A stretch of DNA of 64,000 nt from positions 87,420,001 to 87,484,000 of the forward strand of contig OZ320316.1 of NCBI GenBank assembly GCA_976226885.1, in the 5' to 3' direction. A program made the position numbers and the translations under genes. The notes under the pieces are model-generated. The model did not search any database. It was not told where the DNA came from and worked only from the letters and a program-made list of their open reading frames with translations. The DNA is from Iphione sp. A-MEVVRFRX5. Its lineage: Eukaryota. Positions 19,766 to 47,383 of this stretch are shown piece after piece; the stretch's first letter is position 1; every line of letters starts with the position of its first letter.

Positions 19766-21346
19766 CTGTGGCGGCCCTGCTGCCTTATATGTCCATCTAT
19801 ATGAAGCAGCTGGGCCTGACCGCCTCGGAGACGGCCATCATCTCTGGCACCATGCCCTTCCTGGGCGCGTTCGTTCGGCCTATCGTCGGTGGGATCGCTG
19901 ATAAACTGCATGCACACAAGGCGACACTGATGATCTGCTGCGTGGCCACAGGCCTCCTTCACGCGGGGTTGCTCTTTGTTCCACCCGTCGACTCCGACGC
20001 CCCCAACGTCGACCCGGCGTCGCGCGTCAGCATCGAGTGCAAGCGCGACAATTCGGTGATCAAGTACTGCACGGACACGCGCAAGCTGGGCCGCGACTGC
20101 TACGTGCCGCCCGAGGGCTTACTCAACGTGACGGGAGCCACACCCGACCCGGCCATCAACGGCTCCGAATGCAAGCTGCAGTGCGAGTTCCTCGTGCCTG
20201 ACGAATCCAGCGGCTCCAACGGCATCTGCTTCACGCCCTTCCGGGTGCGCGGGCCGGGCGCGGCGGTGGTGCGCGTGGACGACGAGCGGCACGACTGCAT
20301 GCCGACGTCGGCCTGGCCGACGAACGGCACGCCGCCTGAGCTGGAGTTTGTCCTGGAGGAGATGAATCATACTCTGACGCAGTACACCTTCGACGAGGGG
20401 ACGCGACAGTCGCTCGTCTGTCATTCGTACGCCATGTCTGCCTTCCTGTTCAACGGCACCTCCTACCAGCGCCTCTTCTGTGACCGACTCACCCACCTAC
20501 GCTGCCATGTCGAGTGTGACCGCTTCTCGCAGGAACTAGCTCGCACCAGCTGCACGGAGGACCGCCGTGACTACACCAACAAGTTTGGCCGCACCTTCCT
20601 CATGTTCTTCTTCATCGACCTGCTGGCCTACATCGCATTCGCTCCCATCTTCAGCTTGATCGACGCCATGACTTACGACTTTCTCGGCGAGGAGCGCGGC
20701 AAGTGGGGTAAACAACGGATGTGGGGGACCATTGGCTTCGCCCTGTGCGGCGGCCTCGTCGGCGTGCTCATGGACGTCTACAGCGTGGACAAAATGTCCG
20801 CCGACTACACGGTGTCGTTTGCCGTCTTCGCCGTGCTGCTAGCGGCGGCGGCCACGGCGGTCTGCCAGTACAGTATCTCCGGCGCCATGACCTGCTCGTC
20901 GATGCTCACACACATTGGCGCCTTACTGTGCCGCCTTGAGGTACTTATGCTCTTCTTCCTAGTGTTTGCCTTCGGCATGTTGAACGGGTTCATCGAGACT
21001 TTCCTCTTCTGGCACCTCCAGACGCTTGGAGCCCGCCCGATGCTCTTCGGCTGGTGCATTGTCACGGCCTGCCTCTCCGAAATCCCCATGCTCTTCATCG
21101 CAGGACGGGTCATCAGCATCATCGGCCACGTCAAGTGCCTCTGCCTTGTGTGCTTCGCTTATGGCGTACGCTTCACAACCTACTCCTTGATCCAGGACCC
21201 CCGTCTCGTGCTGGCCGTCGAGCCCCTACAAGGCATCAACTTTGGCCTGATGTACGCAGCCGCCTCCTCCTATGGGAGTCTCATCACGCCGCCGGGCATG
21301 CACGGCACCATGCAAGGCTTTATTGGCGGCTTATATTTTGGATTCG
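19766..21346 (+). CDS. MFSD6-like major facilitator superfamily transporter, large internal coding exon (5' exon not identified)
   Basis: ORF with LLPYMSIYMKQLGLT, GIADK, GKWGKQRMWGTIG and VEPLQGINFGL motifs, multiple TM segments and GC-rich codon usage. Acceptor tttcag ends at 19765 with branch-like TACTGAC upstream. Donor G|GTAAGT at 21346/21347. Confidence 0.9.
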
Positions 21347-24300
21347 GTAAGTACCTCTTAGAGATCATCAGCATTTGCACACGAATATGCTAAACTTCCA
21401 CATGTGTTACCGCTTTGCAACAAAAGCGTATGTAGTTTATCAACAATGCACAGGTATGCTATGCTATTCGCTTGGAGGGGAAAATCTACCTTTCCATTTT
21501 AGATTCACTTAAGATCTCTTAGCAGAGACCTAACCACGAAGACGCATACAAAAGATACACATCCTTATCTTCAGATATAACATCGGTGTGGCTCTGATTA
21601 GTCATGACTGTGGAATCACTGAAGCATTCTCCTCGGATATCTTGCCGTATCTCAACCCTCACAAGAGACCTTACATACGGCTTATACTGTCAGCGCAAAT
21701 CCCTTAAGTAAGACCTACGATAGCGTCAGCGTATTTCTGATGTGCAATGTACAGTTAATATTGCATGCAACAGGACTGCTTCCTACTCGGCAGCTCGCCT
21801 GTGCTCTCATATTCTACTTTCGGCTTTGTTATTCCTATACAGTAATCACTCAGACATTACCTTTCCATTTGCAGACGTTAGATAACCACCTAATCTCCTT
21901 GATGCAGGACGCTTAATGTGTCTGCGGTATGCAGCTTCACATTAACAGCGATAATTGACTCAGAATCGCTGCTAGAGGAGACTGTAAATAATGATCAGTC
22001 AGAACTGATCACCCAGAAGCAATTTATTAATTCAGCAGCAACGTCAACAAATGCGTGTCATTCTCTCATGCTAATCCACAGATTGCATATGAGATGTGGA
22101 TGCACGTTACTGCCTATCATGTTGCTAGGCCACACTAACCACATGGTTAAAGTTTGTCGGACAATTTTTATGTTCGAAGACTTTTTCCCCATAAAGAAAT
22201 ACAATTAGAAGACATGTAGTAGGCTTCCCAGATTCCTTAATATCCTCTGCCTCTCTATTGAATAATGCATTTAGATAACTATATAACACTCAATTGGCAT
22301 GGCCTCCTGTCCCATCGTATGCAGCCGAGGGGGTTCTTAAATATACGAGAAGGTTGGCATAGGGACGATCAGATTCTCATAGATGTCAGGAAAGTTTCGC
22401 TCAGTATAAAGATGAAAATAGGAGACGTCGCCTCGGGGGGTTGTATAAAAACGCACCCATGCACACTGTAAGATGGCATCTCAGTTGTCTGCAACTGTCA
22501 AGACCCACATCGGCGGGAACAGTCAGTACAGGGGACTCTGCCGGCTTCCTCGGAGCAATGACGAAACAGTTCTTATCAGGAGATAGAAGTGGAGGTCCGT
22601 AAAGGCTTGTCAAGACGACCTCTTCATTGAGCGACCAGAGTCTGCTGACGACAATCCCCCCTCCCCACTCCCTCCCTCCCCGCTCCCCCACCCACATGGT
22701 GAATACGACGCCATACCCAGCGACATTTCATCAACAACTGTCGTCCAATCTGACGGCTTTAACTATTTTAAGGCTTACCCAGTCAGCTCGTCTGATGAGT
22801 CCCGCCGCCGTTTTACCGGTAAATCTTACAAGAAATCAGGTTGTGTGTCTGCTTGATGTCTACTCGACTGGCTGTTACTCGCGTTGTTTTCTTCTGTTAG
22901 GGATTCAGCCTTTCAAAAAAGCTTTGCGGAGCACTTCCTTTGAGTCCACAGGGTACAAATGAACAGATGCCATGGATATGGAAGGCTTCGTTTGATGTAT
23001 TCATGTGTTAGAGAAGGAAGTGTCAACGAGGAAAAAATACTTCCCATCTTTAAAAAAGACCTTTTTCTTTTACCTTTGTTAATGCGGCAGAATGTAATTT
23101 ATCATCGTAGGTAGTAATGAGCATTCGTCGTATTAATGAACATTCGTCGTATTATATTCGTGTAAGTGCGCATAGTTACAAGAAAATGATGTTTTAGATC
23201 ATGCACCAATAGTGCTTGAGGTAGCTAAACCCTTTTTTTCATTTTGACCGTAACACTTGCAGTGCGTGGGACACTAATACAATGCTATCTAAAAGAAAGG
23301 TTAACAGTTGTCCACGTATTATGCAATCACATTATTGATAACCGTGCTGAATTATGTTATTCGATTATATACCTGTTTATTGTTAATGTTTCTTTTGCCT
23401 TTGGACACGTATTGCTTCGTAAAATTTTCAGATGGCGTTTTGTGTACCTCTCAGACTTCTAAATGTCTGCAAGTCTCTGAAGATTAGCGTTTGAAGGACT
23501 TTGTGGACGTACCTACCGAGAATGTCATTTTACTTCTTTCACCTGAAAGGCTAAGGTTACAGTGGTGCATGACAGAGCCGTAGCTGGCTTTCTTAGCTCG
23601 ACATACCCACCACAGACGTATGAGACAGGTCCGAGCATCATTGCGTTCGCCTACGAGCAGGCGCCCAGATGAGTAATTATTCCAGCAGTCTGTACTTTCT
23701 CTCCAGTCCAAAAGGCCCACAAAGGAGTCACCTGGGTGGCAGTAAGGCCCGGTGATGGGATCACGCGGGGATCTCACTGATGGGTTCACTCGGGGTTGGC
23801 TTGAGAAGCGGAACTGCGGATGGAATGGCTGACGGGATCGCAAGGCTTTCGGGATCACTGAGCTTCGGCGGGAACTCTTCCAGAAGACTTGTCGCTACTG
23901 TTCTCCCCAGTAGGCAAGCCGTGTTAATTGGAATGCGCCGCTCCCCCAGGCACACGTAGTTTAACCAATTATAGTCACAAAGATGTCGACAAAGAAATCG
24001 TTTCTTCTCGAGCTGCATGCCTCATGGTAATTCACAATCGGCCTTTTCAGATATTGCGTTTGATATCGGTTTGTTGCTGAAAGTCACTTGGCAGTATTTT
24101 TTATGATCATAGAATAAGACAAATTATGCCAAAAGATATGGCATGGCTATGACAGGTTCAAAGTGAGCTTCTCGTGCCATTTTATTCACAGTTGTGTATT
24201 CTTGTGCATTTGCGATTCTTGCCTATAGTACTTTTAACAAACGTGTAGTCTGTAAAATCTGAATATGTGCTTTGTACCATGAGAATATTCTAAGAAAGGT

Positions 24301-27300: not shown

Positions 27301-29045
27301 ATAATGTAGTTATCCCGTCATAGATCTGTGTGCTCAACTTACTAAATTATGTTTCTTAGAGGAGGCGGCAGTTCAGCACAGGATCTCCAGGAGGACCAAA
27401 GTATTTTCACCCGAACTTATTGAAGCCAGGCTTATTTAAACTACCTATATAAAACGATGCCTGAAAGTAGTTCCGGCTGAGATACTTTTAAAGTCTCATA
27501 ATTTGCTTATGCTTATGTATTATTACTGTTTTTTTCATATCATAGACAAAAATCATATGTGTTCTGTCAAAAAAAGACAAAGCAAACGAAAGTGCACATA
27601 AAATTATGTCACGTTGGACTACTTTTTCAGTCAGGTACAGGGATATACTAAGATGACTGGGGTTGGGGGATCAGAAATAGAGGAAGGGGTCAAAGTACAG
27701 AGTGTCCTAACAACCCAGTGAATGTAGGTGCCAACACTTGTTTATATTTAACTCATTTTGTTGCTGTCTGTCACTTATGGTTGCCTTATCCTGGCATGTA
27801 ACTTGTTTTCCACCTGTTTGTCTTTTCGCCTTGTTTTGTTAGTGAGTCAATAGCATAGTTTCCCTAATATTGCAGTAGTTGGGGTCCCATTGAAAGATTC
27901 TTGCTACTTTTTTTATAGGATAATGGAGAGTATATTGAATTTGGTACTTGATGCTTGCAGAGTAGAAGGACAGACAATTTATTAGTGACGATGACTGGCC
28001 CTCCTTGAAATTCTTGCTATATTATAATTTAGCATTTCTGCAACTATTTTTACGGCTTCAACATCTGCTTTATAGGTACACAAGTATTCATCTTACCAAC
28101 CGCAAAGCTTAAGGCTACATACCTCATTAAAATGAATAGGCCAGAGCCTACATTGAATTAGCTTTGAGTTAATATTTGGATGACATAGTATTGTTGATGT
28201 AAGTAGTACATGGAAATAGACCATTTGCACATCTATGGCTTCGATCTGGCCACCGAGTGTGATGCTCTTCTGTCTGTCAACTGATTCCTGTCTGGTTAGA
28301 GTGCTACAAATTAAATGTTGCCTGAAAGTAGTCTGGCCGTTGGTTAAGATCTCATGTGTATGAGACTCTTCCTGAACCTTAGGATTTCTTTTCTCTCATA
28401 GGTTATGTTAATCTTTTTTGGAATAATTGAAACTGTCACATGTTTTATGGTTAAAAAAACATAGCATAAAAGAAAGCACACCGAAAATCTGACACTACTT
28501 TTTCAGTTGGGGTAGTAATACACCACACGCATCTTCAGCAATTGTAAAATTGTAATTGTAAAATATTATCTCCCTACTGAAGGGTGGAAGGGGGTCGTGA
28601 CCCAATTATGTTCAGCCCAAGCAGTCACCCCAACTACCGCCCCTATCCAGTCATCTAAGGAGTCAGTGCAAGTGCCGAAGGTGCTTGTTAGTGATAAGAA
28701 TGCTGTCATTGTGTCCACACCCAACGTTTTCCGTCTTGCCTCTATAGGGTTATCATTTCTGTCTATAAACTCTTTTTGGTTTATTTAGGCTGCGGCTTAA
28801 GACTAGTTGTTTTTACTTATTGGTTAATGCGTGGTAAACGTAGGCTGAAGGATTGATGGTTGATTGATGCTGATTGACGAAATGGTTAAGTTTGTTTTGT
28901 GGCTCAGAACCATAGGTTGGATGTTCGAAGCTAAGGGTTGACAGCTTAAACTATAATCACTTCAAATTTAGTCTAAACCATGAGAATTAACAAACACTGA
29001 AAATTGCATATGGCGTTTTTCCCTTCCTGTAAGACAAGTAACATG

Positions 29046-29387
29046 TGTAGCGGTGTCATGTGGCAACGTTGCACGGTGCAAGGTTGCATTGTGCGAGGTG
29101 GCACTGTGCACTGTGCATTGATGCTCTCAGCGCGGAGTGCAGTGTTGCAGTGTCGCCTCGTGCTTTGTGCTTTGTGCTTCGTGCACTTGCGATTGACGCA
29201 TCGTGCAGCGTTGCACCATGCACCGCTGGAGGGCTCCAGCCTATAAAAGCAGGAGCTGGAGCCCTCTCCAGGCAGTTCTGGGCAGGGAACCATACTGTGA
29301 GCATCTCACTCATTATTGTCTCAGCAATAAAGATCCTTGGTTCATACTTCCTAGTTATGTCTTACTTGCGGAGTGGCCGACGTTACA
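29046..29387 (+). repeat. 5' LTR
   Basis: TGTAGCGG...CGTTACA. TATAAAA at 29242-48 and AATAAA at 29326-31. Direct repeat of 38731-39072. Confidence 0.97.
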
Positions 29388-30136
29388 TTGGTGGCAGCGG
29401 TGGGATCTCGTCCCCCGCTGGCCGCCCCCCCGTAGGGAGGGGGCGCCGACGCTTACAGTCGCCGCCCGCACCAGGAAGGGATAGCGACTCAGAGGCCTGG
29501 GGTACCGAAGGCGCTCTGAGCTCGGACAGTGAGATTGAGCTGATGTTGGTCCGCCCCCCGTCGCGGGCCGCGCCCCGGCCGTCGAGGCGTCGGACGCCGA
29601 CGGGCGCCCCGCGGGTGGAACCTGGCGCGTCGACGGCTGGCGCGTCCCGACGAGGGAAGGAGTCCACCGACGCGGGAGCGAGCAGTGCGTCGACGAAGGG
29701 CGCACGAGCGCGGGGTGCCACGACGCTCGGTGCCGCGGCGATCGACGCAGATGCTATTGACGCAGGTGCGATCGACGCAGGTACGATCGACGCAGGTACG
29801 ATCGACGCAGGAACGATCGACGCAGGTACGATCGACGCAGGTACGATCGACGCAGGTATGATCGACGCAGGTACGATCGACGCAGGTACGATCGACGCGG
29901 ATGCTACCGACGCGGATGCTACCGACGCAGATGCTACCGATGCAGATGCCAGCGACGCAGACGACACCAGCACGGACGCCCCTGGTGCAGGCCACACCAA
30001 CGCCGACGCGGTCAATGCAGGTGCGCTTGGCGCGGGCGCGGGCGGGGTATATGCACCCCGGGGGGGGCGGCCGGCTCGAGCACCCCCCTTCCCCGCGGGC
30101 TCAACACAGCGGGTACCAGAGGAGCGGATACCGTGA
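29357..30136 (+). CDS. 5' ORF ('ORF0', 259 aa) starting in the LTR; low-complexity with IDAGT repeats; may be a Gag N-terminus or the first exon of a spliced ORF
   Basis: ATG at 29357 (MSYLRSGRRY) lies in the frame of track ORF 29060..30136. The stop overlaps the GTG at 30133 of the gag frame. Confidence 0.6.
   Translation: MSYLRSGRRYIGGSGGISSPAGRPPVGRGRRRLQSPPAPGRDSDSEAWGTEGALSSDSEIELMLVRPPSRAAPRPSRRRTPTGAPRVEPGASTAGASRRGKESTDAGASSASTKGARARGATTLGAAAIDADAIDAGAIDAGTIDAGTIDAGTIDAGTIDAGTIDAGMIDAGTIDAGTIDADATDADATDADATDADASDADDTSTDAPGAGHTNADAVNAGALGAGAGGVYAPRGGRPARAPPFPAGSTQRVPEERIP
29389..29406 (+). promoter_or_regulatory. Primer-binding site complementary to the tRNA-Leu 3' end
   Basis: TGGTGGCAGCGGTGGGAT starts 1 nt after the LTR. 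It is the reverse complement of ATCCCACCGCTGCCA+CCA, the 3' end of metazoan tRNA-Leu(AAG/TAG) as recalled. Confidence 0.85.
29741..29965 (+). repeat. 15 x 15-bp coding tandem repeat (consensus ATCGACGCAGGTACG)
   Basis: Counted unit by unit. Encodes IDADA/IDAGT/TDADA in the ORF0 frame. Confidence 0.95.
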
Positions 30137-31317
30137 CACGCACCGGCGGATCGGCAAGCGGCTCACTACTGGTACCTGGCCCCTCCCACGCGATAGCGAA
30201 GAGCGGAGGAGGGAACCACGTTGTCAAGCCGGGAGCCGCCCGCCCGAAGGGCGAACCGCAGGTTCCCCCCCACCGCGGCCCTGGTCGGGGGCGGTCCGAT
30301 ACCCGGAAGCCAGCCCACCTGGACCCGGGACGCGCCCCGCGGGCGCCTGGGGCATCCGCGGCGAGAACTCCAACCGACGAGGCCACTGCCTTGGTGCGAG
30401 GGTTGGTGTCCGGATTACAGGCCGCGATGCAGCCCCAGGCGGTGCCCCTGCCACCACCACGGCGGCACCATGTGAAACCTGAACCTTTCGACGGATCTGC
30501 ACCCTTGTCTGAATTCCTGCACCACTTCGGACTCGTTGCGAAGACCAACCGTTGGGACGACGCTGAGAAGGCCCTCCAGCTCAGCGTCTGTTTACGGAAG
30601 TCGGCCCAGTCGGCCCTCCGGTCGGCCAACGTGGACGTATCAGCACCCGGGGCCTACGCCCGGATAGAGGAGGTGCTGAAACAGAGGTTCCAGTCGGAGG
30701 ACCGCGTTACCTTTTTCGAGCAGGAGCTCAAACAGCGGCGCCAGGGCAAGGATGAGGATGCCCAGAAGCTGGGAGAGGAGATCGAGCGGCTGGCTCGGCA
30801 AGCCTACCCGGAAGCCGAAGGGGTCTGGCTTGACCGCATGTGCAAGGACTCCTTCGTCAGTGCCCTACGGGACGAACGAAGCCGCCGCTGGGTGGTGCAG
30901 GCCAAGGCCAGGACGTTCCAGGCAGCAGTCTCGGAAGCCCTCCTAGTGGAGTCGTTCCATCGGGCAGAAAAGGAACGTAGCCCCCCTGCCACCCAATCGC
31001 GTGTACGGGCGGCTCGCACTGAGGAGGACGAGGCCTTGGCCGCGGCAGCTCGCACCGCCCCCACGCCCCCCCCGCAGGCTTGGGACCGGATAGAGCAGCT
31101 GCTGGTCCGCCTGCTGGAGGCGCCCGCCGCCGCGCCCGCCCGACGAGGTCGTCGGGGAGGGAACGCAGAGGGCGGGTGCTTTTATTGCCATGAGAAAGGT
31201 CACTTCAAGCGGGATTGCCCGGCGCGCAAGGCGGCAGAAGGAGCGGGGGCGGCGGCCCCCCCAGCGGCCCCATCCAGCGAGGCGGGAAACGGGCAGCCGC
31301 CCGCCCCGGCCCAGTAG
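30133..31317 (+). CDS. gag: Gag (capsid-like region + CCHC zinc knuckle); true start uncertain
   Basis: KPEPFDGSAPLSEFLHHF...NRW capsid-type start and CFYCHEKGHFKRDC knuckle. The frame is open from 29761; the first ATG is at 30427. Confidence 0.9.
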   Translation: MTRTGGSASGSLLVPGPSHAIAKSGGGNHVVKPGAARPKGEPQVPPHRGPGRGRSDTRKPAHLDPGRAPRAPGASAARTPTDEATALVRGLVSGLQAAMQPQAVPLPPPRRHHVKPEPFDGSAPLSEFLHHFGLVAKTNRWDDAEKALQLSVCLRKSAQSALRSANVDVSAPGAYARIEEVLKQRFQSEDRVTFFEQELKQRRQGKDEDAQKLGEEIERLARQAYPEAEGVWLDRMCKDSFVSALRDERSRRWVVQAKARTFQAAVSEALLVESFHRAEKERSPPATQSRVRAARTEEDEALAAAARTAPTPPPQAWDRIEQLLVRLLEAPAAAPARRGRRGGNAEGGCFYCHEKGHFKRDCPARKAAEGAGAAAPPAAPSSEAGNGQPPAPAQ

Positions 31318-31327
31318 GGCGGGCGGC
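31284..31327 (+). promoter_or_regulatory. -1 programmed ribosomal frameshift signal (gag to pol)
   Basis: Slippery heptamer G GGA AAC (31284-90) in the gag frame, then a 5-nt spacer. Perfect 11-bp stem GCCGCCCGCCC (31296-306) / GGGCGGGCGGC (31317-27). A -1 shift lands in the pol frame. Confidence 0.8.
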
Positions 31328-31469
31328 CGCAACCGACGTTTCCCTGGGACTGCCGGAGTGTCTGCAGGCTCTGGCAGGGGCAGTCCAGGGAGAGCCGGCG
31401 GTCACCCTGCAGGGCCACTGAAGGCGCGAGTTCAACGGACTGCTCCTGTCAGGGGAGTTTGGGGGCAGA

Positions 31470-34400
31470 ATGATTGATTGGCTGATCGATACTGGCGCTT
31501 CAGCATTGCTCCTCTCCGCTAAGGTGTTCGAATCGCTGCACGGAGTTCCGCTGGGACCCGTGGACGCCCGCGTGTACGGTGTAGACGGCGCCCCGCTCGC
31601 AGTGAGAGGATCCGTGGCGGGGATGGTGTACTTCCAGGAGGCCGCAATCCCCATGCGGGCTCGAGTGGTGGATATGGAAGTGCCTGCTATACTGGGACTT
31701 GACTGGCTGGACCGCTGGGAGGCGGTGGTGGACTCTCGGAAGGCGCAGGTGGCGTTAGGCCGGATACCGGAAGAGACAGCGGCACCCTTGACGGTGGCAG
31801 CGGACACCACGGTCCCAGCGGGACAGGTCGGGTGGCTGCAAGCCGAGTGGCGGGGAGAGGGACTCCCGGGTGAGAGCATATTGGCAGAGGCCAGCAGCCA
31901 GTTCGAGGAGAGGTCGGGGCTGCGAGTGGCCAGGGCCGTGGTGTGCCCGCAAGAAGGCCGGCTGTGGGTGCCCCTTTGGAACCCGGGACCAGTCGCAGCT
32001 TGCGTCTTCCGTAGTACGCAGCTCGGGACAGGCCATGTGGTGAGCGATGTGGTGACCACCTACGCGGCACCGGCGGAGGCTGTGAGGGCCGAGCAACGGG
32101 AAGCGGTGAAACAGCTGCTAGACCAACTACCAGAAGGACTGTCGGGCAATGACCGAAGCAGGATCCAGGCCATGCTGGAGGCACACCACGGCGTATTCCA
32201 GACACCAAGTGGACCCTTGGGGTGCACCCCCGTAGTGCAGCACCGGATCGACACGCAGGGGCACGCTCCCATCCGCCAACGGGCGCGGCGTCTACCGCCC
32301 CATAGGAAGGCGGAAGTGGAGCGGGAGGTGGAGTCGATGCTGGAGAAGGGGGTGCTGGAGCATTCCACCAGCCCGTGGGCGTCCCCCCTAGTCCTGGTCA
32401 AAAAGAAGGACGGGAGCACCCGCTTCTGCATTGACTATCGGCGGCTGAACGCGGTGACGAAGAAAGACGCGTATCCCTTGCCTCGCATCGACGACACCCT
32501 GGATGCGCTGCAGGGGAACCGCTATTTTTCTGCAATTGACCTGGCCAGTGGCTACTGGCAGGTCAGGATGGACCCGGCCGATGCAGAAAAGACGGCCGTG
32601 TGCACTCCTGGAGGGCTATACCAGTTTCGGGTGATGCCCTTCGGGTTGTGCAACGCACCGTCGACCTTCGAGCGCCTCATGGAGTCCGTGCTGCGGGGCA
32701 TGGTGGGCACAGACTGCCTCGTGTATCTGGACGACATCATCGTGCTGGGCCGCACGGTGGAAGAGATGTGCGACCGTCTGGGGCGAGTCTTCGACCGGCT
32801 CCAGCAAGCCGGACTGCGAGTCAAGGCATCGAAGTGTCAGCTGTTTCAAGAGGAGGTGGCGTATTTGGGCCACCGGGTGTCTGCCCGCGGTGTCGGGGTG
32901 GACCCCGAGAAGATTGCCGCTGTGTCCGCCTGGCCGGTGCCGCGTTGCAGTGAGGAGTTACGCGGGTTCCTCGGCCTCTGCTCATATTACCGGAGCTTTG
33001 TGGAGGGCTTTGCACGGATTGCGGCCCCCCTCCACGCGATGGCGGACCGACTGGCGGAGTTCGCCTGGACGGAGGAATGCCAACAGGCCTTCGACCACCT
33101 GAAACGACGACTGTGTTCGGCACCGATCCTGGGCTACCCCTCCCCGCAGGGAAGGCTGTTGCTCGACACGGACGCCTCCGACACGGGCGTCGGGGCAGTG
33201 CTGTCCCAGGTCCAGGACGGACAGGAGCGGGTCCTGGCGTATGCGAGCCGGACTCTCACTAAGCCTGAGCGGAATTATTGTGTGACACGACGGGAGCTGC
33301 TGGCCGTGGTGTTTGCCTTGCGCAAATTCCGCTGCTATGTGGGAGGGCGGAGTGTCGAGATCCGGACTGACCATGACTCGCTACGGTGGCTGTGTAGCTT
33401 CCGGGAACCGCAGGGCCAGCTAGCCCGTTGGTTGGAAGAAATCTTCTGCCACGACCTGGAAATCATCCATCGGCCAGGCCGGAAACACGGAAATGCGGAC
33501 GGCTTGTCGCGGCAGCGGTGCAAGCAGTGCACTAGGGAGATGATCCCGGAGGCCGCAGAAGTAGCCGCGGTCACGGCAACCCCGTGGGCGAGCGCTGCGC
33601 GCCTCGGCAACGCGCAAGCGGCAGAGGAAGGTACGAACACGATCCGCCGGGCCTTGGAGGCGGGGGACGATCCCCCAGGGCTAGAGGTCGGACTGACGTG
33701 GGAGGAGCGCCAGCTACGGGCGGAAGGAGGCCGGTTGTCCCTGCGAGGCGGAGTGCTGATGCGGCACTGGGAGGCCGAGGGCGGGCAGGCGGTATACCAG
33801 GCCTACGTCCCCTGCGCCATTCGGGCAGAGCTGTGGCAGGATGTTCACGCAGGCGCGATGGGAGGCCACCTGGGCGCCAAGAAGACCCTCGGGTTGCTGC
33901 GGCAGAAGTGGTTCTGGCCCGGGATGCGCCGAGATGTGGGGCGATGGACGGCGGCGTGCCAGGCTTGCCAGCGACGTAAGGCGCCGCCCTGTTCAAAGCG
34001 GGCCCCGCTACAGTCGCGGCCGGTGAACGAACCCTGGGAGTTGGTGGCGGCTGACATACTGGGGCCTCTGCCGGAAACGCCCCGGGGCAACCGGTATGTC
34101 TTGGTAGTGGCAGACCACTTCTCCAAGTGGACGGAGGCCTTTCCCCTGGCCGAGGCCACGGCTAAGGCTTCCGCGGAAGTCATCGTGCGGGAGGTGGTCT
34201 GCCGGTTTGGCCCCCCCCGGGTGTTCCATTCCGACCAGGGCCGCAACTTCGAGTCGGCGCTCTTTACCGAGGTGCTGCAGCTTCTGGGGGTGGAGAAGTC
34301 CAGGACTACCCCGTACCATCCGCAGAGCGACGGCGTGGTGGAGCGCTTCAACAGAACGCTGGCTAACATGCTGGGCACCCTGGGGGAGGAGCGTCGGGCC

Positions 34401-37400
34401 AGCTGGGATCTGGCCCTTCCCTACGTGATGGCCGCTTACCGGGCCACCCCCCAGGGTTCGACCAACATGTCGCCAAATCGGCTCCTGTTCCACCGTGAGG
34501 TCAACCTACCCGTGGAGCTCCGCTACGGATACCCCAAGCCGGACGTGGTGCAGCGGAACCAGTTCGTCAGCCAGGTAGAAGATGAGGTCCGGCAGGCCCA
34601 CCAGCGAGTGGCAGGGCGTCTGAACCGTGTGGCGGAGCACCGGCGTGACTGGTACAACCAGAAGGTCAGGCCGCAAGGTTACACCGTGGGACAGAGGGTC
34701 TGGTTGTTTTCACCACTTCGCCGCCGGGGAGTCCCTCACAAGTTCCAGGATTGGTGGGAAGGGCCTTGGCAGATAGAAGAGAGGCTTTCAGAGGTCACCT
34801 ATCGAATCGGCAAGGGCCCCAAAAGGAGAGTCGTCCATGCGGACCGACTCAAGCCAGCCAAGGAGGACCCTCAGGTGACTTGCACCAGTCAGGCTGTCCT
34901 CGCGGATGCAGGAATAGTGGCTGCGCCAACCGCCGGAGCTGGGAGTGTAGGTGCGTTGTGGCACCTTCGACGCGAGGCGTGGAACGAAGCTGCGTCGATG
35001 CGAGCTTCGCAGGTGCACCCTTCGCCAGCCCGTGGCGCCCCCCAGCGTAATTCCGCTCGTGCGTCGATGCTAGCACTGCAGACGCGCCCTTCGTCGGCAT
35101 GTGGCGCCCCCCAGTGTGAGTCCGCTGATCTAAGCTACTGGGAACGAGGCAGCACCCCCCGCGACTGCGTTCCTCGCTCGCAGACCTCGTGCCTTCATAG
35201 CCCGAGCAATCGACGGAGCAAGAATCCTCGCACGACAACCGAGAACGCATCGTTCCAACGGAAAGCCCGCCGCTACACTGAACGCCAGGACGCCGTGACC
35301 TTTCCCGCACGGACAGTACAAGGCCAGGTAGGCGTTTTATCAGGTGCAACAATCGTACAAGCTACGAGCGATAATAGGGGCCGCCCCGTTAGAAGGTGCC
35401 AGCCTTGCCACAGCAATAATCGAAGGGCCGGTGTAGGCTTCAGCACGAAGGGTGGCTGCGTTGATTGTACGGGAGTAAGGGCGCCGGACTGCCACCGTAA
35501 CTGCGCAGCCTGTACTGGCGGCGGAATATCGCGAGTTGAACGCGCAGGCGGCAGTTGTAAGGGAGCCACTTGTTCGCCAGTAGAAAGGTCGAGCCACGTT
35601 TGCGCTGTAGTAGAAGCACGCCGTGCTGACTCCGCGGCCTGTACTGGCGGCGAAATACCAAGGGTTAAACGTGTGAGCCATGTTTGCACTGTAGCAGGAA
35701 CGCCCTGTGCTGACTCCCGCCTTATTCCCGCAGGCACTCGACGCAGCGTCCGTCGGGGCAATAGCGCTCGACGCAGCTACAGTGTACGCCCCGTGCATCA
35801 GGACCACGACGTTGGCCGCGCTGACGGTTGCCGCAGCTACGATCGACGCACCTGCATTCCACGCAACAACGAACGGTGCCAGGACGATCAGCGCAGCCCC
35901 GCGCCCACTCACTACCAGCGACCCGAGGTCAGCATGGCGGAGCACGACCCGACCCCCAGCACCTCAGACGCCCCCGACGGCCCTCCCTTCCCCTGCCAGG
36001 TGTGCGGGAAGGAATTCGCCGAGCTGGAGGGCATGTACGAGCACATTGCAGCCGCCCATCAAGTCATCGGGTTTGGCTGGCTGTGCCCCTTCCCCAGATG
36101 TCAGGGGACCGCCTTCAAGCGTAGGGCCGATTGGAAGCGGCACGCAGTGAAGGTGCACGGCTCGGAGCGGGTGGCACACTCCACAGGCGTGGAGCTGCTC
36201 CGATTTTCGGGTTATAACCCGACATTCGGGGTGGTGCTGCCCTGTCCGCCTGAGCGGCAGGCAGAGTACGACCGCCGGAAGCGGCAGGATGAGAGGACCC
36301 GGCGGCGGGACCTATTGAACTGGATTGCTCAGCGGCAGGAGCAAGGGGAGACGGAAGAGGACTCGGGGGACGACCTCCCACCTGCGGGGCCGCCTGTGGC
36401 CGCGCCCCCGGGCCCCGGCCCCGTGGAGCCTGCACCCGCGGGCCCCGCCGACCGGGCAAACTCCCCCCCTCCCCCGAGAGGGGACTCTGCAGTCCCGGAG
36501 ACCCCCCCCGCGCCGCGGAAGGCCGATCCCCCACAGGACCCGGGCACCCCCCTGCTGGACGAGGCACCGCTCGGGCAAGGGCCCCACACCCCGTCAGAGA
36601 CACCTGAGTCGGGAACGTCGGCCCCTTCCCACACCGGCACGCCATCGGGAAGCTCCTCGTCTTCCCCTCCTCGTCGGGGAGCGCCCGCCCGGACCTACGA
36701 AAGGGCCAAGCCCCAGGGCACCCCGAGCTCCTCGTGTGCCCGCACCGCGCCGTTGGTGCCCACCCCTGCCGGCATCAACCTGGAGGGAACCCCGGCGGAG
36801 CCCCACCGCCGGCAACTGTTCCAAGGGGGACGAGCCAGAACACCCCCAGCGCCGCCGACTCCGCGGGAACCATCACCAGAACGGCCGGCCTGGTCAGATT
36901 ACGAAGACGCCACCGAGTCGTCACCCCTTGTGCCTGGAGGCGTATCCCTGCGGGGACGCGCATCCTTCCGCCATCCACGGCGCCGGGGGGCGGGTCGGAT
37001 ACCGACTTCCTCCTCCGAGGAAGAGCCCCGCACCCCAGGGAAGGGCTGGTGGACCAGCCCCGCCCGCGCTCGGACGCCCGGCCGCCGAGGGCCCGCGGGA
37101 CGCAGCCATACCCCGGCGAAGGTGAGCCGGACGGCAGAGGAAGAGGAAGCTCAGCTGGATCACCGGCTGGGCCCTGGCTGGGAGAGGCCGACGGAGAGTG
37201 GGCCTGTGGTGGTCCTCGAGGATTCGCCGGGTGCCTCCCCCCCGCTGGCGCGGAAGAAGGCCCAAGCTACGCCCCAAGCCAAGGAACCCGATACCCTGCA
37301 GCGGGCCATGGCCGCTACCTTAGGGGAGGTAGTGTGGTTAGAGGGGGAGAGCTCGGAGCTCTCCGACACCGGAGCGGGGCCCGGGGTGACGGCGCGTACC

Positions 37401-38552
37401 GCCACAGCAAGAGAAGAGGAGTTGGCGACCCTGACCGCCGATTCTACGGTGGCGCGCCGGGGCTCGGATGTTCCCCTGCTGGAGGACATCTCCACTCAGG
37501 AATACACCGAGGAGTGGTCGGAAGGACCGCCCGAGGACGAAGCAGGAGGACTGGGCGGGTCCTCAGAGTCCGGGGCGGCGGCCGCCCCGCCGGGCGAGGG
37601 GGACAAGGGGCCCCGACCGCCGCCAGCAGATGAGGACCTCGGCTCACATCGGCCTCCAGCGGGGCCGACCGACGAAGCCGGGGACGCTCGGACCGCCCAC
37701 ACCGCTCGTGAGCCAGGGGAGCGGCCCGATGACCCACCGCGGGGTCGCCCACAAGAGGAGCCCCCCCGTGGGCCCGGGGAGGCCACCGACTCATCAGAGG
37801 AGGGCCGCGGTAAACCGACAGTCTCGGGAGTCGCCACACTCAGCCTCGTGGGGGCGACCCCCCCAACGGATGGGGCCCGAGTGTCGCCACCACCACCGCC
37901 ACCAGTGTCGCCACCACCACCGCCACCAGTGGACCAGCCGGACGCTGTGGGGCCCCTACCGGTACCCCCGGAGCCCGAACGACCAGTACCAGCACCCGAC
38001 GGGGCTGGCCTAGCGGGCCGCCCCCCCCAGCCACTGGGTCGTCGGCAGGACCAGGGCGCGCTCTCCCCAGTGGCCCGAGTTAACCCCGCGGCACCCCGAG
38101 GGAGGGGCTTGGCCGTGATGGGCAGCCCCCGAGGCACCCCCTCACGACGCCCCGGTGGGCCACATTACGCCTACCGATGGACCTATGAGGACGTCTCCCC
38201 CCCTGCCTCTGAGGACGAAGGAATACCTGACGCGGTGTACCATTGGGTAACCACCCTGCACGTGTCTCGACAGTCCGCCCCGCCGGTAGGGTGGCACATC
38301 GTGAGTGCCTCCAGCACCGCGGAAGTACAGCTCGCCGGCCGCCAGGAGGTCAAAGTACTCCTGGTGCAGTCTATTAGCTTCCGGCCGTCGGGGGAGGCTC
38401 CCCCGTGTGACTTGATGAGTTGGCACGCCCGCCGGCCCGGGAACCTGACCCGAGGGCGGGCGTTCCGCCGGTTTACCTCCTGGGCCGACTGCCAGGAAGG
38501 GGAGGAGGTAGTGGCCGAGGTGAAGGAGACCTTCGTGGTGCGGCTACGTTAG
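31470..38552 (+). CDS. pol: Pol (protease, RT, RNase H, integrase) continuing in frame into a ~1230-aa extension with two C2H2 zinc fingers
   Basis: LIDTGAS (31488), YLDD (32724), DTDAS, integrase H..H..CQAC, ADILG/HSDQG/VVERF and the GPW...HADRLKP tail (~34857). No stop until 38550. Confidence 0.95.
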   Translation: MIDWLIDTGASALLLSAKVFESLHGVPLGPVDARVYGVDGAPLAVRGSVAGMVYFQEAAIPMRARVVDMEVPAILGLDWLDRWEAVVDSRKAQVALGRIPEETAAPLTVAADTTVPAGQVGWLQAEWRGEGLPGESILAEASSQFEERSGLRVARAVVCPQEGRLWVPLWNPGPVAACVFRSTQLGTGHVVSDVVTTYAAPAEAVRAEQREAVKQLLDQLPEGLSGNDRSRIQAMLEAHHGVFQTPSGPLGCTPVVQHRIDTQGHAPIRQRARRLPPHRKAEVEREVESMLEKGVLEHSTSPWASPLVLVKKKDGSTRFCIDYRRLNAVTKKDAYPLPRIDDTLDALQGNRYFSAIDLASGYWQVRMDPADAEKTAVCTPGGLYQFRVMPFGLCNAPSTFERLMESVLRGMVGTDCLVYLDDIIVLGRTVEEMCDRLGRVFDRLQQAGLRVKASKCQLFQEEVAYLGHRVSARGVGVDPEKIAAVSAWPVPRCSEELRGFLGLCSYYRSFVEGFARIAAPLHAMADRLAEFAWTEECQQAFDHLKRRLCSAPILGYPSPQGRLLLDTDASDTGVGAVLSQVQDGQERVLAYASRTLTKPERNYCVTRRELLAVVFALRKFRCYVGGRSVEIRTDHDSLRWLCSFREPQGQLARWLEEIFCHDLEIIHRPGRKHGNADGLSRQRCKQCTREMIPEAAEVAAVTATPWASAARLGNAQAAEEGTNTIRRALEAGDDPPGLEVGLTWEERQLRAEGGRLSLRGGVLMRHWEAEGGQAVYQAYVPCAIRAELWQDVHAGAMGGHLGAKKTLGLLRQKWFWPGMRRDVGRWTAACQACQRRKAPPCSKRAPLQSRPVNEPWELVAADILGPLPETPRGNRYVLVVADHFSKWTEAFPLAEATAKASAEVIVREVVCRFGPPRVFHSDQGRNFESALFTEVLQLLGVEKSRTTPYHPQSDGVVERFNRTLANMLGTLGEERRASWDLALPYVMAAYRATPQGSTNMSPNRLLFHREVNLPVELRYGYPKPDVVQRNQFVSQVEDEVRQAHQRVAGRLNRVAEHRRDWYNQKVRPQGYTVGQRVWLFSPLRRRGVPHKFQDWWEGPWQIEERLSEVTYRIGKGPKRRVVHADRLKPAKEDPQVTCTSQAVLADAGIVAAPTAGAGSVGALWHLRREAWNEAASMRASQVHPSPARGAPQRNSARASMLALQTRPSSACGAPQCESADLSYWERGSTPRDCVPRSQTSCLHSPSNRRSKNPRTTTENASFQRKARRYTERQDAVTFPARTVQGQVGVLSGATIVQATSDNRGRPVRRCQPCHSNNRRAGVGFSTKGGCVDCTGVRAPDCHRNCAACTGGGISRVERAGGSCKGATCSPVERSSHVCAVVEARRADSAACTGGEIPRVKRVSHVCTVAGTPCADSRLIPAGTRRSVRRGNSARRSYSVRPVHQDHDVGRADGCRSYDRRTCIPRNNERCQDDQRSPAPTHYQRPEVSMAEHDPTPSTSDAPDGPPFPCQVCGKEFAELEGMYEHIAAAHQVIGFGWLCPFPRCQGTAFKRRADWKRHAVKVHGSERVAHSTGVELLRFSGYNPTFGVVLPCPPERQAEYDRRKRQDERTRRRDLLNWIAQRQEQGETEEDSGDDLPPAGPPVAAPPGPGPVEPAPAGPADRANSPPPPRGDSAVPETPPAPRKADPPQDPGTPLLDEAPLGQGPHTPSETPESGTSAPSHTGTPSGSSSSSPPRRGAPARTYERAKPQGTPSSSCARTAPLVPTPAGINLEGTPAEPHRRQLFQGGRARTPPAPPTPREPSPERPAWSDYEDATESSPLVPGGVSLRGRASFRHPRRRGAGRIPTSSSEEEPRTPGKGWWTSPARARTPGRRGPAGRSHTPAKVSRTAEEEEAQLDHRLGPGWERPTESGPVVVLEDSPGASPPLARKKAQATPQAKEPDTLQRAMAATLGEVVWLEGESSELSDTGAGPGVTARTATAREEELATLTADSTVARRGSDVPLLEDISTQEYTEEWSEGPPEDEAGGLGGSSESGAAAAPPGEGDKGPRPPPADEDLGSHRPPAGPTDEAGDARTAHTAREPGERPDDPPRGRPQEEPPRGPGEATDSSEEGRGKPTVSGVATLSLVGATPPTDGARVSPPPPPPVSPPPPPPVDQPDAVGPLPVPPEPERPVPAPDGAGLAGRPPQPLGRRQDQGALSPVARVNPAAPRGRGLAVMGSPRGTPSRRPGGPHYAYRWTYEDVSPPASEDEGIPDAVYHWVTTLHVSRQSAPPVGWHIVSASSTAEVQLAGRQEVKVLLVQSISFRPSGEAPPCDLMSWHARRPGNLTRGRAFRRFTSWADCQEGEEVVAEVKETFVVRLR
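35994..36158 (+). other. Two tandem C2H2-type zinc fingers within the pol frame
   Basis: CQVCGKEFAELEGMYEHIAAAH and CPFPRCQGTAFKRRADWKRHAVKVH fit C-x2/4-C-x3/4-F-x8-H-x4-H. Confidence 0.85.
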
Positions 38553-38718
38553 GGGAATAGTGGATGCGGACTGGATCGGACTGGAACGCGATGGATTTTG
38601 GCTTGGACATGGTTGCGCGGAGATAGCTGATGACCCTGGCGCGCCTGGACTTTTTTCGTTAGCGTTACGCGTTGGACTGTGTTGCCGTGGTTGAACTTTG
38701 GGGACAAAGTTGATTCTT

Positions 38719-38730
38719 GGGAGGGAGCAG
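38719..38730 (+). promoter_or_regulatory. Polypurine tract
   Basis: GGGAGGGAGCAG abuts the 3' LTR. Confidence 0.8.
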
Positions 38731-39072
38731 TGTAGCGGTGTCATGTGGCAATGTTGCACGGTGCAAGGTTGCATTGTGCGAGGTGGCACTGTGCACTGTG
38801 CATTGATGCTCTCAGCACGGAGTGCAGTGTTGCAGTGTCGCCTCGTGCTTTGTGCTTTGTGCTTCGTGCACTTGCGATTGACGCATCGTGCAGCGTTGCA
38901 CCATGCACCGCTGGAGGGCTCCAGCCTATAAAAGCAGGAGCTGGAGCCCTCTCCAGGCAGTTCTGGGCAGGGAACCATACTGTGAGCATCTCACTCATTA
39001 TTGTCTCAGCAATAAAGATCCTTGGTTCATACTTCCTAGTTATGTCTTACTTGCGGAGTGGCCGACGTTACA
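38731..39072 (+). repeat. 3' LTR
   Basis: 340/342 identical to the 5' LTR by manual comparison. Confidence 0.97.
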
Positions 39073-41453
39073 CATGTTTGGTTAAAATAGCGATACCGTC
39101 ATTCAAACTGCGATACCTCTTTTATCCAGCATAGATGCATCCAGAGAATATGCTACATGAGAAGTACCATTGATTAACCATTCCAACCCAAAGGCTGGGC
39201 AGTTTCCCATAGATTTAAGGATCTAAAGCAGAGCATTAGTATCAAGGAGTAAAAGCTTTCCACTGAATGGTTAATGCATGTAATTGGCTGTATGTATGGT
39301 GATTTTTGTTTCAAGCAGACAGATAACTAATCTTATACTACACATGTATGTAGTATGTTTGATGATAAATAGGTTATTGATCATATGTTCTTCACTAAAA
39401 CATAGCTAAGTCACACAGCTGTAAAGGAGAGTCGAGATGAGGGAGAGTGTGTCATATTATGGCTTAATAATCCCGTTTAAAGGTAGGATCTGAGGAGGTG
39501 CATCATTCTAAGTTTTCTTTAGAAGTGAAATTATCGTTCATGTACATACACATATAAATATATGCGTATCAGCGTATACCTGACTATGCCGAGTAAGAAT
39601 ATGTTCGACGATAGTAACTACCATAATACTAACAGAGTTACCGTGTTCAGCTTTAAACCAATGTCAGCACCAACTGGAGCAGTTACTGTAATAGAAGAGC
39701 TTCTCATCCAGGTGAGAACTCTAGCTGTTGCTAGTCCAGTGACACTAGGGTCTCAAAATTCTGTACACAGATACTGTAGTAGTGACTTGAACCTTCTTTT
39801 GTAACAACTAGAGTAAGTAGTGGTAAACCAATACATGTATATCCTCAACGCATTTCTCAGAGTTTTATTGCCTTATTGTGGACGAAATATAGCTGCTTAC
39901 AAGTACACAGTTTTAACAAAGTGTCTCTTCTTAGAAAACAATGCTTTTATCAGATGGGAAAGAGGCCTACTGGTTTGCTGATTTTATGCGCCTTTCTCAC
40001 GCCATTATAGCACCATAAATATAGTTTATAGTGTTTAGGGTGGCGACTGTCGGGAGCGAATGATGTAGCACTGAGGTCAACCGTTTCTCATACGGTTATG
40101 GAAAAATACTTTCAGTATAAATATTCTCAAATTCATGGCAAGGACGACAGTCCTCTTGGCGTCGGATTAATCCATGCGCTGCTGAACAACTCCATCTCGT
40201 TGTAGGATGTGGAAGATTGAGGAGAAGTAGCGTTTCGCACAGCAGGATATTCTTCTCTCGGCGTATCACATGCCCGATGATGACTTGTTTGATGGCCCCA
40301 ATCCAAGCAATCTGTATCCCCTTACAACTGCCAGTGATCGATGTGGACACTGCTCACCTCTTCCCGTGTGGTAAGGTGGTCGTCGGGGTGCTGTCTCCAT
40401 GGCGACAGGTTCAGGTATCTCTCCTATCTAAGTAGTGTTTTCTTCCTCACCTTTCCCACTCCGTTCTCGATGTTATCGGGGAGGGGGGGGACGGAAGTCG
40501 GTGAGAAACACTTTGCAAGTTGCGGGGGCGGTTGTCGAGCGAGGAAGTGTTTCTTTTTTCTTATCGGATACCGTGTAAATGTTGCAATTTACCTGGGGCA
40601 CAACGGGATTCGAATCATTTTAAAGCTGTCAGTGTTCGAAATCCCTCGAGTTTCCCTCCATTAATTTATACTTTACGTGTGCAGATTCAGCATCAATGAG
40701 AATGAAGCGGTTTTCACGCTTCTTGCTCATGATGCAGTTTCCTAATGGTTCATGAGGAACGGCTGGTCCTTTTTAATTACGGAGCAACCGCAGGATTCGC
40801 GTATACGTTTCTGATGGTACTGTCCTTGTCAAAGCCCACAGCTGCTTTCTGTTTTTTGTTTTTTAAGGCTTTTAATTCCGCTGAATTTGACGTACGAAAT
40901 TAATTTGCACATTATCCAGCTTTTTGCCTTGTTTCTTGCCACTTGATTAAGTTCATGCTGTTGATGAGATATCAGTTCTTTTCATTTTGTTCTCAGTCTC
41001 CAGATATGGACAACTCCTGCACGAGTATTGGTAATGTTAGATGAACAATGATATCCACTCCTATCTATTCTTTCTGGTGCGTACTATCATTAGGCTCAGA
41101 TGTCCCTACCTTTATACATGTCATTGTGGGTTTATGAAAAATTAGATTCTATAAGGAGCAACCTTGTCATTTCATTTAGTTTTATCGCCTTGCTTATAAA
41201 TAAGAACTACCAATACCTCATACAGTACACAGTGTATTGTGGCCCATCTCCATAACAGTTAAGGGAGAAGGCATGTCACAGAATGCAAGAAAGTGGCAAT
41301 GCCACTTTGCCAGTGATGAGAGGGGCTACATAGGACTTCTATTCGACGGTAGCAGCATCATTGCTTACCGACTACCAATACCCCGGGAACACATGCTGTT
41401 TTCAAGTTATTCTTTCCTCTCTACCCCCCCATACTAGGCTACACCTTGGCAGA

Positions 41454-45920: not shown

Positions 45921-46014
45921 GTGTACATGTTTGTTTCGACTCTTTCAAGAAGACTGGCTTGTGCTAAACCTATCACATACTCTCTCCCAGTGGAGAGACA
46001 GCAAGGTAGAGTTC

Positions 46015-46313
46015 TGTAGTTATTCTAGCTCTAGTGCAGGGTGACTTAAACTCTGCTGAATCTCAAAGTCTGGGATGAAACAGGTGCCCTTCTGTCTGGA
46101 GGTTTTTGGACCTGGCCTGCAATTGCTTAGAATCATCTTATGCCATTGCTATGTATTTGCTTGGCACTGTCCTTTGCATGGTTGGCTCATCTGAAGCACT
46201 GGCGATGGCACCGTGGCATGGTGTAAAGTGCAATATCACCTGCCTCATCCCAGACTTCAAGATGAGGCTTGGCAGAGTCTGATTCACCCTGCACTAAAGC
46301 TTGGGTAACTACA
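46015..46313. repeat. Long imperfect inverted repeat (~72-bp arms, ~150-bp spacer); MITE or DIRS terminal structure
   Basis: TGTAGTTATTCTAGCTCTAGTGCAGGGTGAC...GTCTGGGATGAAACAGGTG pairs with CACCTGCCTCATCCCAGAC...TCACCCTGCACTAAAGCTTGGGTAACTACA. Confidence 0.75.
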
Positions 46314-47383
46314 CAATTTTAGGGGAAAGCAAGGGATACCTAGCCTCATTAACAAACTTTAATTCCTACCTACCCCTAAGAACCCCATAAACCATTTCAT
46401 GAGGCTGTTTGTCACCTACAGCAGAACCATTCAGCCCTTTCATGACATCACAAAGGCACATTAACATCATAGTAACATTAACACCACAGTAAAACTGATA
46501 ATGTCAATGAACGAATTAGGTTAATACTCCATCTGCATGAAGTGAAAGCTAAAAATGTCATTTTGTTTTAATAGTGTCACTCGGGTTACCATTATTGCTC
46601 GCAGTGTCGCATCATAGATAACGTCTGAATTAGGTTTCCTTCATAAGCTAACATATTTTTAACGTGTGAAAGTTTTTTTAATCTATACAATCTGCGATTC
46701 ACCAAGGTCGTCTGACATACAAAAAAAGGCTGGTTAATGTGCGAAAAATAGAAAAAGATGTGTGTAAATTATCTCCAATATTGTTTGTCATAATGGCATG
46801 TATTGTACGTTTGGCTTAAGGAAGACATAACCATCAAGCTCGATTCGCAAGGATGTAAAACAAGCCATGGAAGCACGTTTGTAGCATATTTACTGTCACT
46901 GCTTTCCTGTCTGCAAACAAATTTTAATCAGCATCTGTGTTATGTCGTACTAAACACATTGTATATGTAATGTATTGGCACTGTACTGAACTAACAGGAG
47001 AATAAACAGTTCTATAAATATTTTCAAATGTGCGATATGAGTTTCTGCCTAAGAGGCACTGTGAAAGTCTGACGTATAAGACCTCTAGGCACGGAATGAA
47101 TCACCGTGCAATAAGTTGGTATTAACTGTGCTGACATTCATATGATGCGCTACCCACTGCCGGTCTGTTGAAAAGGTAGGTGTAGGAAATCCAACAATAC
47201 GGGCCTAAGTGCCCGCGGCATTGATTTATGGACAAATAAGACCTGTGTGCGAGAGGGAGGGAGGAGTTAAAAAAAGGCAGGCTGTTCGGAGATGGGAATC
47301 CTACACCAAGGTTACAGGATGCGTTACTTGGCGATTGGAGGTATTATGAGCTCCAAAAAAAACTCCAGACATATATGTCATTG

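Follow-up and report, generated by a model that had tools for sequence, protein, structure and literature searches.

A retrotransposon with a zinc-finger gene behind integrase

We analyzed a 64,000-nt stretch of the genome of Iphione sp. A-MEVVRFRX5 (GenBank assembly GCA_976226885.1, contig OZ320316.1, positions 87,420,001 to 87,484,000, forward strand), hereafter the window, to whose coordinates all positions refer. Positions 29046-39072 hold a Ty3/Gypsy long terminal repeat (LTR) retrotransposon, recognized by its LTR features and by its domain order of gag, protease (PR), reverse transcriptase (RT), RNase H (RH) and integrase (IN). Pfam matches follow this order, and gag contains a zinc knuckle. 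The two LTRs differ at 2/342 sites. Behind integrase the pol frame runs on for ~1,230 codons, to 38552, and includes an 872-amino-acid (aa) protein with two C2H2 zinc fingers (Table 1). On balance, the sequences favor a spliced subgenomic mRNA that yields this protein from its own ATG at 35934, with a conserved acceptor (35733/34) and an internal donor bounding a short intron, and with an internal promoter as the likely source.

A DNA search with the element gave at least 55 matches (40/61 candidates scored), and 35 other copies were compared through their 5’ and 3’ stretches. The 35-copy alignment used below consists of the window copy and 34/35 of the 5’ stretches, one stretch without an anchor being left out. 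Gag counts are based on 31 copies, as five of the 35 5’ stretches were truncated or rearranged. Protein searches with the finger domain and with the C-terminal domain each gave at least 150 matches, with identities as low as ~35-40%. From these searches 26 divergent copies were taken, mostly selected for long open frames, and 15 of 19 subfamily representatives were kept (one degenerate and three near-duplicates were left out).

Table 1 Annotated and predicted features of the element, in window coordinates.
Feature	Position	Strand	Remarks
Target-site duplication, 4 bp, CATG	29042..29045	+	other copy 39073-39076
5’ LTR, TG...CA, 342 bp	29046..29387	+	TATA 29242-29248, AATAAA 29326-29331, U3 rich in GCAC
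gag, ATG inside LTR	29357..31317	+	includes the earlier annotation’s ‘ORF0’; frame broken in window copy at C/G homopolymer 30056-30067
Primer-binding site TGGTGGCAGCGGTGGGAT	29389..29406	+	
15-nt tandem repeat, codes DAG[T/A]I-like gag N-terminal repeat	29739..29961	+	contains proposed CAG|GTA donors, not conserved
GGGAAAC, predicted -1 gag-pol frameshift site	31284..31290	+	
pol: protease, RT, RNase H, integrase (Ty3/Gypsy order)	31422..34859	+	pN/pS 0.05-0.09
Post-integrase linker, open in pol frame	34860..35933	+	predicted to contain the zinc-finger gene’s promoter, 5’ untranslated region and intron
Splice-donor motif CAG|GTAGGC, conserved	35325..35333	+	predicted intron start 35328
RGYRATAA (GCGATAA) motif, conserved, 39 nt past donor	35367..35374	+	predicted promoter-proximal factor site
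Predicted intron, 406 nt	35328..35733	+	
Branch point A35713, pyrimidine tract and CAG acceptor	35709..35733	+	
Zinc-finger open reading frame, 872 aa	35934..38552	+	own ATG conserved in 35/35 copies
Two C2H2 fingers	35994..36158	+	finger 2 helix positions -1, 2, 3, 6 = R-A-D-R
Conserved C-terminal alpha/beta domain	38169..38549	+	pN/pS 0.08; model pLDDT 85.7
Polypurine tract	38719..38730	+	
3’ LTR	38731..39072	+	

Constraint on the linker and the zinc-finger start codon

Purifying selection on the zinc-finger open reading frame (ORF) begins at ATG 35934. The ratio of nonsynonymous to synonymous substitutions (pN/pS, counted in the pol frame from substitutions common to two or more copies) is low over PR, RT-RH and IN, rises to 0.64-0.77 in the post-integrase linker and reaches 1.18 in the 200 nt from acceptor to ATG, which would be coding if fused. 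It then drops to 0.05 in the fingers and is 0.16-0.29 in the disordered middle. The first-pass annotation had offered this ATG (AGCATGG) as a second start; it is indeed present, with a purine at -3 and a G at +4, and every subfamily has a Met ahead of the fingers, but the change in pN/pS makes it likely the main start.

The linker itself is held open: taking the commonest codons, it has no stop in the pol frame versus 13 and 18 in the remaining two forward frames, and the insertions and deletions common to at least two copies are all multiples of 3 (four single-copy ones are not). An antisense or alternative-frame ORF in the linker was considered and rejected, as no frame is strongly constrained (lowest pN/pS 0.45-0.53).

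A predicted intron between integrase and the zinc fingers

The acceptor comprises the branch-point motif GCTGAC, the tract TCCCGCCTTATTCCCG (35715-35730) and CAG (35731-33), and the first exon base, 35734, is in phase 1 of the pol frame. These parts, including the CAG|GC junction, are exactly as first described. The check then proposed, conservation of branch point and AG in related elements, came out positive: the acceptor AG, the pyrimidine at -3 and the branch A are each kept in 35/35 aligned copies, and a branch-point/pyrimidine/YAG site stands before the zinc-finger ATG in 15/15 divergent representatives, each time in phase 1, although their linkers are otherwise dissimilar. Conservation within one family is modest evidence, because 24% of linker positions are invariant among the 35 copies anyway, and the acceptor 10-mer is not unusually conserved there (33.5% of linker windows score higher). 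The case for this candidate acceptor rests on the divergent subfamilies. Any acceptor by our rule arose in 13/500 dinucleotide shuffles of the window linker. Under a generic weight table for splice sites, not tuned on these sequences, the acceptor ranks 2nd among the 472 AG sites that lie from U5 to the ATG. Calling it strong was thus fair, though it is not unique.

The donor CAG|GTAGGC at 35327/28 is invariant in 35/35 copies and has a counterpart in every subfamily. Of all 10-nt windows in the linker (1074 nt), the best conserved contains this donor, and the GCGATAA window comes second. The order shared across subfamilies is a MAG|GTRAG-type donor, RGYRATAA 21-39 nt further on, branch point, tract and YAG, and then the ATG; by rule, exactly one donor and one acceptor occur in this order in 15/15 representatives. 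Shuffling reproduced donor-then-acceptor order in 0-6/500 trials per representative, and in the U5-gag-pol sequence of 14 elements (77,666 nt) the rules pick out just 4 acceptors and 9 donors. With the weight table, the donor ranks 1st in 11/14 and 2nd in 3/14 among 304-423 GT sites, and the acceptor ranks 1st in 9/14 and in the top 4 in 14/14 among 455-580 AG sites. The predicted introns span 169-487 nt and end 2-371 nt before the ATG (2-11 nt in several subfamilies).

Taken together, it is very probable that the acceptor at 35733/34 is spliced, and probable that it pairs with the internal donor at 35327/28. The spliced zinc-finger mRNA of the first-pass annotation is a likely route, with this donor as partner in place of a gag repeat. 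Since the donor is in phase 0 and the acceptor in phase 1, a splice from 35327 to 35734 cannot fuse Pol to the fingers, and the predicted intron behaves as a 5’ untranslated region (UTR) intron or as a Pol terminator. No intron-less copy was found among 38 candidates of the window’s family, and no deletion of the intron span in the 34 aligned copies. In other searches every match except one starts upstream of the acceptor, and the intron is kept in the candidate L171. A lack of intron-less copies is expected if the spliced RNA is without a primer site.

Two related sites were seen in the window linker. GCTGAC recurs near 35625, without a tract, inside a 129-nt duplication. A second acceptor-like site at 35166-35184 (35183/84) lies 144 nt upstream of the donor, and its GCAG is kept in 34/35 copies. 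An in-frame three-exon fusion via 35184-35327 was rejected, as that frame (read by hand) meets a stop within five codons.

The zinc-finger protein and its candidate targets

The 872-aa product is 16% proline and has basic clusters, two C2H2 fingers, a disordered middle and a C-terminal domain. The proposal that the cargo is of a nuclear rather than an envelope type is supported: the fingers (C-x2/4-C...H-x3/5-H) match Pfam in 17/17 aligned members (PF13894, 27.3 bits against a cut-off of 27), and no hydrophobic segment is present (maximal 19-residue hydropathy 0.89). The two-finger domain was modeled with a predicted local distance difference test score (pLDDT) of 90.9. A fold search with it gave a best Z of only 3.8, and a homologue search with the finger region found none among 85 candidates of 479-1526 aa.

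The -1, 2, 3 and 6 positions of the finger 2 helix are R-T-D-R or R-G-D-R in relatives of the window copy. A Zif268 variant with an R-A-D-R finger, as in the window copy, is reported to bind GCAC and GCGT with dissociation constants of 0.068 and 0.035 nM (PMC3002361). GCAC occurs 16 times in the window U3 versus 2.0 expected. In 11/13 representatives U3 holds 7-17 GCAC versus 1.5-2.5 expected, with 2 and 4 in the two R-G-D-R ones; all these counts use approximate U3 borders and a motif noticed before counting. Sister subfamilies carry TGCGGA at 6-9 per kb in the LTR and 5-9 in the linker, against ~1 in gag-pol. We suggest only tentatively that the protein binds the element’s own motifs; the recognition-code match of the R-A-D-R finger to a GCAC-rich U3 is a lead only.

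The C-terminal domain (130 aa) had no Pfam family in 15/15 members and no usable Atlas match. A profile search of 1.84 billion proteins returned 3 matches to short repeated stretches, and the one inspected was an unrelated repeat protein. Its best fold match (Z 7.1, root-mean-square deviation 4.1, 101 aligned residues) is below significance.

Where the spliced RNA would start

An internal promoter behind integrase appears somewhat favored as the origin of the spliced RNA. In 7/7 loci from three distant subfamilies the donor has a TATA-like box 187-279 nt upstream of it, and in 6/7 an AGRGGGCGCC motif, which to us resembles a CTCF site, stands 25-42 nt before the box. We also take two GGGGGGCGCCAC motifs in the window (35035 and 35104, minus strand) to be CTCF-like; their orientation is opposite to that of the AGRGGGCGCC of sister subfamilies.

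Several observations weigh against an internally initiated, spliced zinc-finger gene. Some concern the analysis itself. The donor and acceptor rules were formulated only after the sequences had been seen. The shared order recurs in 28/28 further loci with a finger match (2/30 loci had no such match), but all 28 come from the subfamilies that shaped the rules and six are copies already examined. Pol-frame linkers are open in 14/14 representatives, a biased sample selected for long open frames. Others concern the protein and its start: an extra ATG lies between acceptor and 35934 in 9/35 copies and also in two other elements (L103 and L105), the finger 1 helix is non-canonical (E-E-G-E), the inter-finger linker is atypical, and the U3 of one element (L117) is not enriched in GCAC (2 versus 2.0). 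In L172, a distant element with post-integrase fingers, no acceptor was found before the finger Met, so the intron may be specific to the window’s clade.

The remaining points bear on initiation, and with them on the possibility that the same intron (35328-35733) leaves an RNA started in the LTR. Pol would then end soon after the junction, and the finger protein would come from reinitiation or by way of a further upstream intron (e.g. to 35183/84). By rule, no TATA box was found in the linker of the window’s family, nor in 13/15 linkers. Several subfamilies have acceptor-like sites upstream of the donor, as the window does, which suits an LTR-initiated multi-exon RNA. The spliced pol frame stops within 0-39 codons in 13/14 representatives (138 in the window), and a stop overlaps the finger ATG (TGATG, TAATG, ATGA) in 22/22 matched loci of the L130-L159 subfamilies, 8/30 loci being unmatched. 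Such overlaps would suit reinitiation on spliced full-length RNA, yet the window’s family is without them. The subfamilies have no upstream donor in a shared position. An LTR-initiated spliced RNA would also keep the primer site and the polypurine tract, and intron-less copies were nonetheless not seen (0/38 candidates). We regard LTR initiation of the spliced RNA as rather unlikely.

A further possibility is that the motifs serve no splicing at all but are elements bound by DNA-binding proteins or small nuclear ribonucleoproteins, with the finger protein made only as the C-terminus of Gag-Pol (e.g. for integration targeting) or from an unspliced internal transcript. The open linker with its triplet indels fits this, as does the acceptor-less L172. 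These linkers also contain a repeated motif whose reverse, CTCCGCAG/TTCCGCAG, forms the end of several acceptors, and the env RNAs of Tor3b/4b are described as beginning internally without splicing (PMC4402516). However, donor, branch point, tract and YAG are kept in order across dissimilar linkers, the acceptors ending CCACAG, TTCCAG and CCCTAG do not match the linker repeat, and in 35/35 copies the fingers have an ATG of their own, preceded by a purine at -3. We consider this explanation improbable.

The 5’ ORF is gag, and its repeat donors are not conserved

The first-pass annotation had set apart an ‘ORF0’, out of frame with gag, whose 15-nt repeats were to supply the splice donor. This ORF is in fact the beginning of gag, whose frame is broken in the window copy. 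Its ATG in the LTR (29357) is the first past the LTR TATA, and the frame continues into capsid in 15/31 copies and to the zinc knuckle in 13/31. In the other 16/31 it is broken at scattered points (7-518 codons); six of these, the window copy included, break at one C/G homopolymer (30056-30067), in both directions. Gag starts at the same LTR position in 26/26 elements, with an MS-x-LR-x-G-type start and subfamily-specific low-complexity repeats. Thus nothing about ‘ORF0’ needs explaining.

The arithmetic of the proposed join was correct. The repeat site CAG|GTACGA at 29780/81 is in phase 1 of the ORF0 frame, joining it to 35734 is in frame, and 939 codons including the zinc fingers follow to the stop. 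By the weight table the repeat donors (4.15-4.32) score near the internal donor (4.74). A donor in the LTR leader, ACT|GTGAGC (29296/97), was rejected: it scores 1.04 and was not seen in subfamily leaders.

That an env-like fusion of the Gag N-terminus to the zinc fingers is the main product is the least probable of these readings, for all that the acceptor is in phase 1 throughout, that Cer1 CERV is reported to share gag-frame exons (PMC10309623) and that Tor3a env donors are placed near the start of gag (PMC4402516): the CAG|GTA donors are missing in 16/31 copies (in one by deletion of the region), distant subfamilies have unrelated gag repeats and no gag donor in common, the acceptor-to-ATG segment is unconstrained, no match starting at 35734 was found among the matches listed, and, with shared linker indels all being multiples of 3, common descent accounts for the constant acceptor phase. 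A minor fusion isoform of this kind may exist in some copies.

Degenerate copies of the gag repeat motif (TCGACGCA) also occur in sense after the acceptor (35734-35900), and reversed in a 69-nt duplication upstream (34991-35126). The 7-mer GCGTCGA is found 6 times in the linker, 12 times in 5’ gag and not in the gag-pol core; these could be protein-binding sites or serve RNA pairing.

A model for expression of the element

The internally initiated, spliced zinc-finger gene would operate as follows. A promoter behind integrase, nested in the open pol frame, would start a subgenomic RNA, from whose 5’ UTR the intron would be removed, and translation from ATG 35934 would give a free 872-aa C2H2 protein. 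On unspliced genomic RNA, Gag-Pol would be read through into the finger protein, or an early stop would at least be avoided. We predict that the finger protein is nuclear and acts as a self-regulator, binding short motifs of the GC(A/G) type that cluster in the element’s own U3 and linker. It is conceivable, though we hold it rather doubtful, that this amounts to a two-promoter circuit, in which the spliced finger gene with its own promoter supplies a factor that binds the clusters in its own LTR and linker as a transactivator or anti-silencing factor, while the Pol-fused form enters particles. The predicted clusters would be GCAC/GCGT for the R-A-D-R finger here and TGCGGAGT in sister subfamilies.

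Other features of the element and the window

The primer-binding site is presumably of the tRNA-Leu type. A premature pol-frame stop (31419-31421) in the window copy is absent at that distance in 28 other copies with the GGGAAAC site. Between protease and RT lies an insert of ~160 aa (31760-32250) without a Pfam match, possibly a dUTPase-like remnant. One element (L105:5870-10000) is an internally deleted copy that is without RT, RNase H and integrase and keeps gag, donor, acceptor and finger ATG; it is a possible non-autonomous form.

No tRNA was found in the window and no Rfam match in the element; a bacterial promoter scan, a method not applicable to this DNA, gave nothing. A long open exon at 19741-21393 (+) encodes a host MFS_1-like (MFSD6-type) transporter with named relatives in the annelids Capitella and Ridgeia. 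Two inverted-repeat pairs are possibly small DNA transposons: one at 46007-46321 (59-nt arms, 197 nt apart) and one pairing 3563-3638 with 54286-54361 (76-nt arms, 50.6 kb apart).

Comparison with known systems

By analogy, the arrangement would work most like the foamy-virus internal promoter and Tas, and like the internal env promoter of Tor3b/4b. In foamy viruses a second promoter inside the coding region (env) drives the DNA-binding Tas, which acts on the LTR and the internal promoter, and transcripts are spliced (PMC7390438, PMC13220597). If our model holds, the likeness to Tas/Bet is that of a regulator from an internal promoter, both promoter and activity being predictions here. Foamy viruses differ in being retroviruses with that promoter in env, and the accounts cited do not describe Tas as a C2H2 protein in the pol frame (PMC7390438, PMC13220597). 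Oikopleura Tor3b/4b are LTR elements in which an internal promoter, located within pol or just past it, drives the third gene, but their cargo is a transmembrane Env on unspliced RNA, as described (PMC4402516), whereas the window element has a predicted intron, uses the pol frame and encodes no hydrophobic segment.

In C. elegans, a spliced mRNA of the LTR retrotransposon Cer1 encodes CERV, an accessory protein that is nuclear and contains cysteines. As reported, however, it uses gag-frame exons and acts in genomic RNA export (PMC10309623), in contrast to a C2H2 protein with its own ATG past integrase and likely no gag exon. The first-pass annotation had seen a mirror of errantivirus env expression. 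Drosophila gypsy does have a third ORF, which follows pol, precedes the 3’ LTR and has an acceptor before it, but its product is a glycoprotein on an LTR-initiated RNA that skips gag-pol, according to the source (PMC4276936). The comparison fails here, as the cargo is not an envelope and the conserved donor lies past integrase.

C2H2-like tails in frame past integrase were found in 8/120 Pol homologues listed, and in 8/39 of those with tails of at least 150 aa. The Gypsy Pol proteins P0090 and P0070 (~2,316 aa) match the finger profile. L172, the acceptor-less element above, is the one member of this group examined at the DNA level. Shorter C2H2 tails occur on P0081, P0092, P0104, P0116, P0117 and P0061. 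Past the Pol end motif, several of these show a start resembling M-x-K-T-K-T-T-P-R-K, which suggests that other Gypsy lineages, too, may have a finger gene with its own start.

Literature searches turned up no account of such an arrangement among the papers listed, though Repbase, Dfam, GyDB and paper supplements may hold it; neither ‘zinc’ nor ‘splic’ appears in the main text of PMC8556966 or PMC8220671.

Implications

Accessory regulators are typical of complex retroviruses. For animal LTR retrotransposons, the sources cited describe isolated cases of accessory genes, such as Cer1 CERV (PMC10309623) and Tor env (PMC4402516). Here a large, recently inserted clade, judged by its finger matches and the near-identical LTRs, maintains what is predicted to be a complete transcription unit within an open reading frame, with donor, acceptor, start codon and candidate binding motif all defined to the base. 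The C2H2 tails on Pol proteins from other samples suggest an overlooked, wider design. If the model is true, this would be an LTR retrotransposon with its own DNA-binding regulator, in the manner of a foamy virus.

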